64,000 nt of DNA, taken from sequence record PZ445442.1; one strand, given 5' to 3'. The notes under the pieces were generated by a model that was not told where the DNA came from, searched no databases, and was given only the letters and a program-made list of their open reading frames with translations. Position numbers and translations under genes: made by a program. The stretch comes from a phage. Of this stretch, positions 61,999 to 63,213 are shown piece after piece (positions within the stretch are counted from its first letter, which is position 1; each line of letters starts with the position of its first letter).

Positions 61999-62027
61999 TT
62001 GACAAACTTTGCTTAACAGTGTAATAT
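61999..62027 (+). promoter_or_regulatory. sigma70-like promoter TTGACA-N17-TAATAT upstream of tRNA cluster
   Basis: Consensus hexamers about 60 nt upstream of first tRNA. Confidence 0.6.
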
Positions 62028-62086
62028 TGTAAACATGGTCTCCCACCTTTTCTGGCGGCTAAGGTGTAAAAGAAAGCCACCCAGTG

Positions 62087-62161
62087 CCCTGTTAGCTTAG
62101 TGGATAAAGCAGCGGCCTTCTAAGCCGTTGACACTGGTTCGAGTCCAGTACGGGGTGCCAA
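62087..62161 (+). tRNA. tRNA-Arg (anticodon UCU)
   Basis: Manual cloverleaf: acceptor GCCCTGT/ACGGGGT, D-arm GCTT/AAGC, anticodon loop CTTCTAA, T-arm ACTGG-TTCGAGT-CCAGT, CCA encoded. Confidence 0.8.
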
Positions 62162-62165
62162 ATTG

Positions 62166-62252
62166 GGGAGTTATCCCGTAGGGGTAGCGGTGTAGACTGT
62201 AAATCTATTGTCATTGCGACTCGGGTGGTTCGACTCCACCACTCCCCACCAA
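62166..62252 (+). tRNA. tRNA-Tyr (anticodon GUA), type II with long variable arm
   Basis: Acceptor GGGGAGT/ACTCCCC, anticodon stem GTAGA/TCTAT, loop CTGTAAA, variable arm hairpin, T-arm GGTGG-TTCGACT-CCACC, CCA encoded. Confidence 0.75.
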
Positions 62253-62366
62253 ATTTATATTTTTAAATGCATAAATCATACAGATAATGACATTGATATT
62301 TATCGTCGTTTATACTAGTCACTAACTGCTCGAAAATCAGTGTCATTATCAGTGTAATTTATAAAG

Positions 62367-62457
62367 GAGGGTAGGGAGCAATGGTGCTCAAGCGGTCTTG
62401 AAAACCGTCCCGTTGAGGATGACTCGATGATGGTTCGATTCCATTACTCTCCGCCAC
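62367..62457 (+). tRNA. tRNA-Ser (anticodon UGA), type II
   Basis: Acceptor GGAGGGT/ACTCTCC, anticodon stem GCGGT/ACCGT, loop CTTGAAA, long variable arm, T-arm GATGG-TTCGATT-CCATT, CCA encoded. Confidence 0.7.
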
Positions 62458-62554
62458 ATTGTTGACCTTGTAATTAAGCGAAAGCCGGAAGCAGAACCGG
62501 ATTATCAAATGTTACAGTCGTCATCGCCGACTAGCCACATGGTCAACATATTGC

Positions 62555-62653
62555 GCTAGGTAAGCCCTTTGGCAAGGGCGAGGATTTTTAATCCTGAAAA
62601 TAGACGAGGTAGTCGTTGAATACATAGGTGGTTCGATTCCATCACCTAGCACC
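62555..62653 (+). tRNA. atypical tRNA-like element (possible tRNA-Lys UUU with about 30-nt insertion in variable region; may be non-functional)
   Basis: Acceptor GCTAGGT/ACCTAGC 7/7, D-arm GCCC-TTTGGCAA-GGGC, T-arm GGTGG-TTCGATT-CCATC, but the anticodon arm is irregular and the element is about 97 nt. Confidence 0.4.
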
Positions 62654-62657
62654 TTTT

Positions 62658-62733
62658 GCTGATGTAGCACAATTGGCAGTGCAATTGATTTGTAATCAAT
62701 AGGTTGCAGGTTCAAGTCCTGCCATCAGCACCA
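62658..62733 (+). tRNA. tRNA-Thr (anticodon UGU)
   Basis: Acceptor GCTGATG/CATCAGC, D-arm GCAC/GTGC, anticodon stem ATTGA/TCAAT, loop TTTGTAA, T-arm GCAGG-TTCAAGT-CCTGC, CCA. Confidence 0.8.
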
Positions 62734-62734
62734 T

Positions 62735-62809
62735 GGCCCTGTAGCTGGAAGGTTCAAGCAAGCGACTCATAATCGCCAGACGGTGGTTCAATTCCACCCA
62801 GGGCCACCA
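62735..62809 (+). tRNA. tRNA-Met or tRNA-Ile2 (anticodon CAU)
   Basis: Acceptor GGCCCTG/CAGGGCC, anticodon loop CTCATAA, T-arm GGTGG-TTCAATT-CCACC, CCA. Confidence 0.75.
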
Positions 62810-62820
62810 AATAATAAATA

Positions 62821-62897
62821 CTCCGCGTAGCTCAGCTTGGTAGAGCGCCTGATTTGGGATCAGGAGGTCGAGTGTTCGAATCACTCCGTGGAGACCA
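62821..62897 (+). tRNA. tRNA-Pro (anticodon UGG)
   Basis: Acceptor CTCCGCG/CGTGGAG (C1-G72), D-arm GCTC/GAGC, anticodon stem CCTGA/TCAGG, loop TTTGGGA, T-arm GAGTG-TTCGAAT-CACTC, CCA. Confidence 0.8.
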
Positions 62898-62943
62898 CCT
62901 TTAGTTATACTTTAAATATATATACACAAAAGGAACCTTTAAA

Positions 62944-63213
62944 ATGTATACACTTAAAATTGTAGAACGTGTAAATCCAACCCATACTGTAGATTTTCGT
63001 GACGATTTCAACCCTCTTGCTGTAAATCTTCGAGAGTCGTATCATGAACTAAGCTGCGATGCAGTTGTGGTCTTCTTTGAAGACAACTCTGAAGGGGCAG
63101 TAGCTTGTGTTGTTGATAGCGAGCAGAAGTTTTATATTTACAGAGATGTGGATGCTTACTTGATGAATGAGAATGCGGTTACTGTCAGAATCATCCACCG
63201 AGTGCCTCGATAA
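62944..63213 (+). CDS. hypothetical protein
   Basis: 89-aa ORF with AAGGAA RBS. Confidence 0.5.
   Translation: MYTLKIVERVNPTHTVDFRDDFNPLAVNLRESYHELSCDAVVVFFEDNSEGAVACVVDSEQKFYIYRDVDAYLMNENAVTVRIIHRVPR

Follow-up and report, generated by a model that had tools for sequence, protein, structure and literature searches.

A predicted family of tRNA-shaped RNAs with a conserved insertion in the tRNA clusters of rV5-like and other phages

The question of stable RNAs that lie in phage transfer RNA (tRNA) clusters and are not tRNAs was first raised by the species 1 and species 2 RNAs of phage T4 (rnaC and rnaD), the function of which is still open (PMC9697503). Here we analyze an element of 97 nucleotides (nt) that is located at positions 62555-62651 of a 64,000-nt stretch of phage DNA (sequence record PZ445442.1, the whole of which is hereafter termed the window) and that had been singled out from the letters alone as an atypical tRNA-like element within a tRNA cluster. 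Judged by sequence comparison, the element is a member of a conserved and previously undescribed family of tRNA-shaped RNAs; no published description of this family was found in the literature, including the papers on rV5, BASEL, KPP-1 and phage tRNAs. The two T4 RNAs appear to be its closest analogues, by analogy and not by family membership. The likeness to these non-tRNA stable RNAs that is established for the element is its location in a phage tRNA cluster. T4 rnaC likewise terminates in a canonical T-arm, ahead of which lie a long extra hairpin and a single strand rich in A and U, but it is 139 nt long and gives no clean cloverleaf in prediction. Homology to rnaC or rnaD was rejected, as family model R1 hits neither and matches in T4 only tRNA-Thr (25 bits) and tRNA-Leu (23.6 bits).

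Other described RNAs share parts of the architecture. Canonical elongator tRNA (Rfam family RF00005) has in common with the element the 7-base-pair (bp) acceptor stem, the 4-bp D stem with G18/G19, the 5-bp T stem with a UUCGAUU loop, the 19:56 elbow pair, U54:A58, the location in a tRNA operon and, for most members of the family, the CCA end. By contrast to canonical tRNA, the anticodon-like arm of every member has 15-16 nt, compared to the canonical 17, with a loop of 5-7 nt; U33 is mostly absent, no anticodon is conserved and the 8:14 pair is A:U instead of U:A. With only 15-16 nt in the whole arm, there is no room for a 5-bp stem together with a 7-nt loop. The element is thus not a canonical tRNA, as its anticodon arm, variable region and 8:14 pair fail the definition. 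Like the class II tRNAs (Leu, Ser and Tyr), it carries an extra arm between the anticodon and T arms; class II variable arms, however, are shorter and emerge nearly straight from the core, whereas here a variable region of 31-43 nt holds a hairpin between invariant single-stranded flanks of 7-10 nt. Class II tRNAs use discriminator A or G (PMC9976931), whereas most members of this family have U.

Selenocysteine tRNA (tRNA-Sec, RF01852) likewise has a long extra arm and a D-arm able to form a 6-bp stem with a 4-nt loop, and the loop CAUCAAA of one clade (that of Erwinia phages and a podovirus, see below) is one base off the model consensus CUUCAAA. For members outside Vequintavirus, tRNA-Sec was the best-scoring Rfam family, above the tRNA model and under its own threshold. 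Assignment to tRNA-Sec was rejected: the scores were 27-39 bits compared to a gathering score of 47 and did not exceed those of the window's ordinary tRNA-Ser and tRNA-Tyr on the same model; the branch is 7/5 and not 8/5, and alignment of the acceptor helix to the model leaves non-pairs at either end; the discriminator, G in tRNA-Sec, is here U, A or C; and the window copy is without UCA, while the clade that has UCA has A33. The acceptor/T-arm/elbow shape is used for a non-decoding purpose in the tRNA-like domain of transfer-messenger RNA (tmRNA), in YrlA and, reportedly, in the pseudo-tRNA 'tRNA-Other' of Bacillus cereus. Unlike these RNAs, in which the anticodon half is replaced or permuted, the element family has a fifth arm in addition to all four of a tRNA. 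Rfam gave no match to tmRNA or YrlA over the element, and weak YrlA and permuted-tmRNA matches elsewhere in the cluster were far under threshold.

Over the region compared, the window matches Escherichia phage EmilHeitz at 100% identity and the type phage rV5 at 98%, and it is assigned to Vequintavirus (rV5-like phages) for this reason. In this genome, the anatomy of the element was found to be as described in the original prediction: canonical acceptor (7/7), D- and T-arms are all present, the cloverleaf extends for 97 nt to the discriminator A and is followed by CC, and the stretch ahead of the T-arm that includes the extra hairpin, put at about 30 nt, measures 31 nt. The anticodon-like region can be drawn equally well in the two ways that had been proposed, i.e., as a 5-bp stem with a 5-nt loop or as AGGA-UUUUUAA-UCCU with a 4-bp stem and a 7-nt loop presenting UUU. 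ARAGORN placed a gene at exactly 62555-62653, left it unassigned (tRNA-???, four-base anticodon 'atcc') and yielded no canonical tRNA of 74-90 nt in another frame of stems. The Rfam tRNA model matched 62555-62651 at 35.5 bits, above its gathering score of 29, and required for this match a 26-nt insert in the variable region and the loss of one anticodon-stem pair; 'tRNA with an insertion' is correct as a description. The minimum free energy fold was -34.2 kcal/mol (z = -3.7 to -4.1), and equally good folds were obtained in none of 200 shuffles.

Homologs were recovered by BLAST and by two pattern scans built on the invariant flanks. By this approach, 36 distinct variants were collected from five genera of the Vequintavirinae, one N4-like podovirus and metagenomes, the last including 23 contigs with a copy of the element. 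The genera are Vequintavirus, Avunavirus, Seunavirus (PVP-SE1, GAP31, 4MG and others), Mydovirus (Klebsiella phages) and Henunavirus (Erwinia phages); the element was also detected in Raoultella phage Ro1. Nine of the 15 matches of the first pattern scan (GAAAATAG...GAATACATAGG) were due to chance, apparently in coding sequence, and were dropped by inspection, and a further scan of IMG/VR gave no more copies of the C-N-N-CCA clade. When a covariance model was built from 20 sequences, the members scored 94-120 bits, no ordinary tRNA exceeded 29 bits, and each genome had a single copy. ARAGORN missed the element completely in the non-Vequintavirus clusters that were scanned. A search with the family-specific pattern in 185,579 bacterial and archaeal species, each represented by one genome, gave no match, and a host or prophage origin was rejected on this basis.

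We evaluated the structure in an alignment of the 36 sequences. At 20 specified pairs, all 720 cells were standard pairs, and 11 of the 20 pairs, including the tertiary pair 19:56, changed on both sides. The acceptor, D and T stems (7, 4 and 5 bp) contributed 16 pairs that were standard in 36/36 sequences, nine of which changed on both sides. When the partners were slid by 1-3 columns as a control, only 34-47% were paired and 0-2 pairs changed on both sides, and none of 500 shuffles matched the observed paired percentage, both-sides counts or covariation score. The same cloverleaf was found by RNAalifold independently of the specified pairs, with the D stem lengthened to 6 bp by the invariant U14:A21 and U15:A20 such that a 4-nt loop was left. 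The elbow pair between D-loop position 19 and T-loop position 56 was G:C in 25 sequences, U:A in 11 and never mixed. Because this pair covaries, the element is predicted to fold as a tRNA L-shape in three dimensions. In the 20 sequences examined, G18, U54, U55 and A58 were invariant, and A8 occurred with U14 in 20/20, the reverse of the usual U8:A14; U15 with the A preceding the T stem, and G26 facing G44, were invariant or nearly so.

The two remaining hairpins were found to be conserved in their pairing. Across clades, the anticodon-like stem changes from AGGAU/AUCCU to AGGUC/GACCU to GGGC/GCCC with pairing kept. The extra hairpin is of at least three unrelated sequence types, is weakest in the GAACUAACAGUAC type, and shows in Avunavirus the compensatory change of GACGA/UCGUU to GACGG/CCGUU. 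The variable region around this hairpin spans 31 nt in the window copy, compared to 38-43 nt in other clades, and its flanks are long and unpaired. Of these flanks, AUACAUA is the most conserved non-tRNA feature of the family, and both GAAAA and AUACAUA are invariant save for one inserted U in the podovirus copy.

To compare rates within the genus, the window was aligned with the divergent Vequintavirus-type contig L017. The element differed at 2/97 positions, compared to 40/212 for the two adjacent spacers and 7/390 for five real tRNAs; its rate is about one tenth of that of the spacers (Fisher p = 2e-5) and indistinguishable from that of the real tRNAs. All within-genus substitutions were structure-neutral (position 9, the extra-hairpin loop, U:A to U·G, G·U to G:C and the 3' trailer). 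Between Vequintavirus and Avunavirus, the element was the best-conserved segment of the entire cluster. These results bear on the 'pseudo-tRNA' that had been offered as one option, namely a decaying tRNA pseudogene that gained an insertion. Decay would account for the aberrant anticodon arm, for the CCA missing in Vequintavirus and for the loss tolerated by phage V18 (see below), and related clusters do hold other aberrant tRNA-like genes. It is contradicted by the conservation in no fewer than five genera of the Vequintavirinae and in an unrelated podovirus, by the absence of any broken cell among 720 in 36 variants, by compensation in every helix and in the tertiary pair, by single-stranded motifs that are essentially invariant, by a substitution rate equal to that of functional tRNAs and by retention after horizontal transfer. 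A pseudogene is thus strongly disfavored, to the point of being hardly credible.

The horizontal transfer is apparent from Salmonella phage vB_SenP_UTK0002 (hereafter UTK0002), an N4-like podovirus of the Schitoviridae with an unannotated copy (104 bits) in its tRNA cluster. This copy has an additional compensatory change at acceptor pair 5, and the element is absent from the UTK0002 relatives FSL SP-058, Pylas and Shigella B2. Since it is present in the UTK0002 cluster and absent from these relatives, the element appears to move between phages as a self-contained unit and to be retained afterwards. Transfer into an unrelated podovirus therefore makes a host-supplied partner more likely than one specific to a phage lineage.

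In all genomes the element lies within a tRNA cluster, usually abutting an upstream or downstream tRNA, and its place in the cluster varies between genera. Such an arrangement could reflect a role in cis only, in which a tRNA-shaped punctuation mark guides RNase P, 3' processing or folding of the tRNA precursor and has no role once released. Punctuation of transcripts by tRNA-like structures is an established principle, known for example from mitochondrial transcripts. We regard this explanation as very improbable, as each neighboring tRNA has its own processing signals and the position of the element is not the same from genus to genus. It would also leave unexplained the GAAAA and AUACAUA strands, the maintained extra hairpin, the covarying elbow and the retention of the element in the different cluster of UTK0002.

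Two further genes were noted in the N4-like phages. Directly upstream of the element in UTK0002 (L062, about 2412-2496) is an unannotated class II-like tRNA gene, GGAAGAUUCC...AAUCUUCCGCCA, with the loop UUUGAAC and a long extra arm. The 'tRNA-Pyl' annotated in Klebsiella phage Pylas (L070, 1748-1823), an unusual annotation, scored only 18.9 bits on the family model and is therefore unrelated.

We next consider whether the element could decode. The loop was UUUUA in Vequintavirus, UUAUA in Avunavirus, a 6-nt C-N-(U/G)-C-(C/A)-A in Seunavirus and Mydovirus, and (C/U)AUCAAA, with A at position 33, in the clade of Erwinia phages and the podovirus. Loop size is thus 5, 6 or 7 nt, position 33 is A, C or U, and U33 is missing in most clades. 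The anticodon triplet differs not only among clades but also among copies that are otherwise the same: over 109 nt, FENT2, K54_rec1 and contig L044 deviate from one another only at the two positions matching tRNA 33 and 34. By contrast, the control tRNA-Thr, tRNA-Arg, tRNA-Cys, tRNA-Tyr and tRNA-Leu genes of the same genomes all kept the 7-nt loop, U33 and the anticodon. The anticodon arm of the element does not evolve like that of a decoder. In sister genera, the large clusters with the element hold ordinary tRNA-Gly(UCC), tRNA-Lys(UUU) and tRNA-Lys(CUU) genes alongside, and for this reason the element is dispensable there as a tRNA-Gly or tRNA-Lys.

A second aberrant tRNA-like gene was found directly 5' of the element in clusters of Seunavirus and Mydovirus (L005, 1119-1194; L023, 2598-2672 on the minus strand; and L034, L035 and L032). 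It has canonical acceptor, D and T arms and ends in G73-CCA, and its loop is without U33 and variable in size and sequence (ACGAUUC, ACGAUUA, ACAGAUCC and ACGAUA). The gene is named Ile(gat) or ???(ga) by ARAGORN and tRNA-Ser in one GenBank record. Additional 'tRNA-???' calls of ARAGORN, with two- or four-base anticodons, occur in large clusters of the Vequintavirinae (all on the minus strand: L023, 928-997; L019, 192-261; L029, 5994-6079), such that aberrant anticodon loops seem to be recurrent in the tRNA clusters of this subfamily.

The 3' ends and the nucleotides known to determine tRNA identity were compared among the clades. Of 31 variants tallied, 23 end in U73-CCA, whereas the ends are A-CCU or A-CAU in Vequintavirus and U/C-ACA in Avunavirus. 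Without an encoded CCA, the RNAs of these two genera would depend on the host CCA-adding enzyme for a finished 3' end. In the other Vequintavirinae genera, G1 generally lies two nucleotides after the CCA of the upstream tRNA, the layout that would be expected of an RNase P substrate. The determinants listed for bacteria are A73, U34, U35 and U36 for Lys, and U73, G1:C72, C2:G71, G3:C70, C35 and C36 for Gly (Table 1 of PMC9976931). When the window copy is drawn with a 7-nt loop (UU-UUU-AA, thus U33, the triplet UUU, A37 and A38), it has with A73 the complete set of four Lys determinants; the Seunavirus and Mydovirus copies have five of the six Gly determinants, all except 3:70. This pattern is suggestive of an RNA selected for recognition by a synthetase and is, at the same time, inconsistent across the family.

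Based on its Lys set, the Vequintavirus element could be a working tRNA-Lys(UUU) with an oversized variable arm, which would supplement decoding of AAA and AAG or replace a host tRNA-Lys cleaved by anticodon nucleases of the host. The annotation based on tRNAscan-SE is a tRNA-Lys reading AAA, the Rfam tRNA score exceeds the gathering threshold, the genus has no other tRNA-Lys gene, and the other phage tRNAs of the operon are mostly readers of A-ending codons, all of which are consistent with such a role. However, the anticodon stem would have only 4 bp and stand beside an invariant G·G, and we know of no class II tRNA in which a variable region of 31 nt has long unpaired flanks as it does here. 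The CCA is unencoded, unlike in the six real tRNAs of the window, all of which have it encoded. The sister genus Avunavirus, with UAU and U73 or C73, fits no identity set and is still under structural selection, and the orthologs of other genera have 6-nt loops or A33 and stand beside a normal tRNA-Lys(UUU) in the same phages. A non-decoding function is the most parsimonious one common to the family, and a working tRNA-Lys is in our estimate unlikely. That the arm was borrowed from a tRNA-Lys was rejected, as the tRNA-Lys(UUU) of Klebsiella phage BIS47 has the unrelated stem UUCGC/GCGAA.

Alternatively, the RNA could be aminoacylated, with glycine in most genera and lysine in Vequintavirus, and not be used by the ribosome, such that it would feed a non-ribosomal reaction or tie up a synthetase or an enzyme that attacks charged tRNAs. 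In the loop of Seunavirus and Mydovirus, C35, C36 and A37 are kept and positions 33 and 34, which are not listed as determinants, vary freely; together with U73, G1:C72 and C2:G71 this gives the five Gly determinants noted above. The Vequintavirus copies acquired the Lys set by a joint change of discriminator and loop, and the encoded U73-CCA of most tallied variants also fits charging. By contrast, pair 3:70 is C:G, A:U or U:A and never the G:C of the Gly set, the clade of Erwinia phages and the podovirus has UCA, one Seunavirus copy has A36, and Avunavirus again fits no set. A function specific for one amino acid is unlikely because such switches of identity should not be tolerated. The rV5 genome paper also reports no tRNA-dependent transferase. 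We consider a charged non-decoder distinctly improbable, more so than a working tRNA-Lys. A phage-encoded tRNA enzyme as the partner of the element was rejected as well, none being reported in the rV5 genome paper.

Taken together, the evidence favors the reading as a tRNA-like element. We think it reasonably probable that the element is a processed, L-shaped and non-decoding tRNA mimic that acts through its conserved insertion on a host factor. In this model, the RNA would be transcribed within the phage tRNA operon from a sigma-70-type promoter and excised by tRNA-processing enzymes of the host, with RNase P acting at G1, 3' trimming and completion of the CCA, and the product would be a stable RNA folded into a true L-shape with a D-loop/T-loop elbow. 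Selection acts on (1) the acceptor/T minihelix, the D-arm and the elbow, (2) the presence, and not the sequence, of two further hairpins and (3) the essentially invariant GAAAA and AUACAUA single strands that tether the extra hairpin to the core; it maintains neither U33 nor a fixed triplet, nor an anticodon loop of 7 nt. Because selection preserves the tRNA body and not the decoding loop, the element would work as a tRNA mimic, which could enter host pathways that recognize the tRNA body, with the insertion binding a factor that ordinary tRNAs do not bind.

Several points weigh against this model. The complete Lys set of the window copy, in a genus without another tRNA-Lys gene, is what a decoder would have. 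The CCA is unencoded in Vequintavirus and Avunavirus, which could mean a different use or a loss of function in these two genera. In addition, phage V18 (L006, about 855-943) is viable although the 5' half of its element is deleted. This natural deletion left a fusion between the tRNA-Tyr 5' half and the 3' remainder of the element, such that tRNA-Tyr, tRNA-Ser and the 5' half of the element are gone; since V18 is viable, the element, together with tRNA-Tyr and tRNA-Ser, is dispensable in culture.

The identity of the host partner is speculative, and the candidates that we judge most attractive are a tRNA-targeting defense enzyme and an aminoacyl-tRNA synthetase. One tentative version of the tRNA mimic, which we regard as doubtful, is a horizontally mobile tRNA-shaped decoy that would be matured by the host like a tRNA and the invariant insertion and fast-changing loop of which would capture or mislead a host enzyme that attacks tRNAs (an anticodon nuclease or an acceptor-end toxin) and thereby spare the real tRNAs. 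If so, an arms race would have left its traces in the hypervariability of positions 33 and 34 and in the coliphages' switch to a loop like that of tRNA-Lys. Should the element prove to divert or inhibit tRNA-targeting immunity, or to carry aminoacyl groups outside the ribosome, it would represent a novel, RNA-based type of counter-measure by phages.

Independent of function, the unusually clean covariation record, which includes a tertiary pair, may make the family a tractable system for the role of non-tRNA stable RNAs in phage tRNA clusters. The rV5-like phages, which are candidates for use in phage therapy, rank among the coliphages isolated most often, yet the gene is labeled in six ways or omitted. 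The same 99 nt (99-100% identity) are named in GenBank as tRNA-Lys (AAA), tRNA-OTHER, tRNA-TERM, tRNA-???(atcc) or 'hypothetical protein', or are given no name. The tRNA-Lys (AAA) label is that of the BASEL phages, where it is the product of an automated tRNAscan-SE run; the element is unannotated in the rV5 record, and six tRNAs were counted in the rV5 genome paper. Recognition of a single family corrects these annotations, in particular spurious 'suppressor tRNA' calls. The 'hypothetical protein' annotations of a few records are probably artefacts. A protein-coding reading was rejected, as no plus-strand open reading frame of at least 25 amino acids overlaps the element and the two on the minus strand are purely mechanical. 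A role as an antisense regulator was without support: in the 64-kilobase window, the complement of the invariant strand GAAUACAUAGG occurred at 18 sites with two or fewer mismatches compared to 17.9 expected, and the sole perfect match was the element itself.

The coordinates of the element's parts and of the predicted promoter, which is named P(tRNA) in the rV5 record, are listed in the table. The operon has the gene order Arg(UCU), Tyr, Ser, element, Thr, Met/Ile(CAU) and Pro.

Table. Parts of the tRNA-shaped element and predicted promoter of the tRNA operon, with positions in the window
Feature	Position	Strand	Observation
Sigma-70-type promoter of tRNA operon (TTGACA-17-TAATAT), predicted	61999..62027	+	Consensus scan, 10/12 matches; P(tRNA) in rV5 record
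Acceptor stem, 5' strand GCUAGGU	62555..62561	+	7/7 pairs with 62644-62650; 5/7 pairs change on both sides, 0 broken (36 homologs)
Positions 8-9 (A8, A9)	62562..62563	+	A8 invariant in 20/20 with U14; position 9 is A or G
D-arm GCCC-UUUGGCAA-GGGC, loop with G18, G19	62564..62579	+	3/4 stem pairs change on both sides
G26	62580	+	Invariant; always faces invariant G at 62596 (G44)
Anticodon-like hairpin AGGAU-UUUUA-AUCCU (5 bp, 5-nt loop)	62581..62595	+	Stem kept by compensatory changes
5' single-stranded flank of insertion, GAAAAUA	62596..62602	+	GAAAA in 36/36 variants; podovirus copy is GUAAAA
Extra (variable-arm) hairpin GACGA-GGUAG-UCGUU	62603..62617	+	Predicted in every homolog, 3-9 bp stem
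3' single-stranded flank of insertion, GAAUACAUA	62618..62626	+	AUACAUA and GG of T stem invariant, 36/36 variants
T-arm GGUGG-UUCGAUU-CCAUC	62627..62643	+	Canonical: U54, U55, C56, A58; position 56 covaries with D-loop 19
Acceptor stem, 3' strand ACCUAGC	62644..62650	+	Pairs with 62555..62561
Discriminator A73 and CC; next base U, full CCA unencoded	62651..62653	+	Sequence

Within the element, positions 62564-62589 (the D-arm hairpin and the U-rich loop of the next hairpin) were flagged as terminator-like by a consensus scan; an internal terminator was rejected as a feature of the family, since the U-run is absent from the sequences of other clades. Elsewhere in the operon, the two spacers of about 100 nt (62252-62365 and 62457-62554) diverge much faster than the surrounding genes, and the first holds a second promoter-like site at 62287-62316. 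The tRNA with a CAU anticodon at 62735-62809 is annotated as tRNA-Met in rV5 and most records and as tRNA-Ile (AUA) in the BASEL records.

Among the public genomes, 18 GenBank records (MG0656xx) titled 'Campylobacter phage' were 98-100% identical to rV5-like phages of E. coli across the locus, and their host label or sample identity looks doubtful. Inside the tRNA cluster of phages VB-EcoM-WM and YP-6 (H12 and H17; matching window positions 62000-63000), an inserted stretch of about 346 bp contains two annotated small open reading frames; this insertion may be a mobile element comparable to segB of the T4 tRNA cluster.

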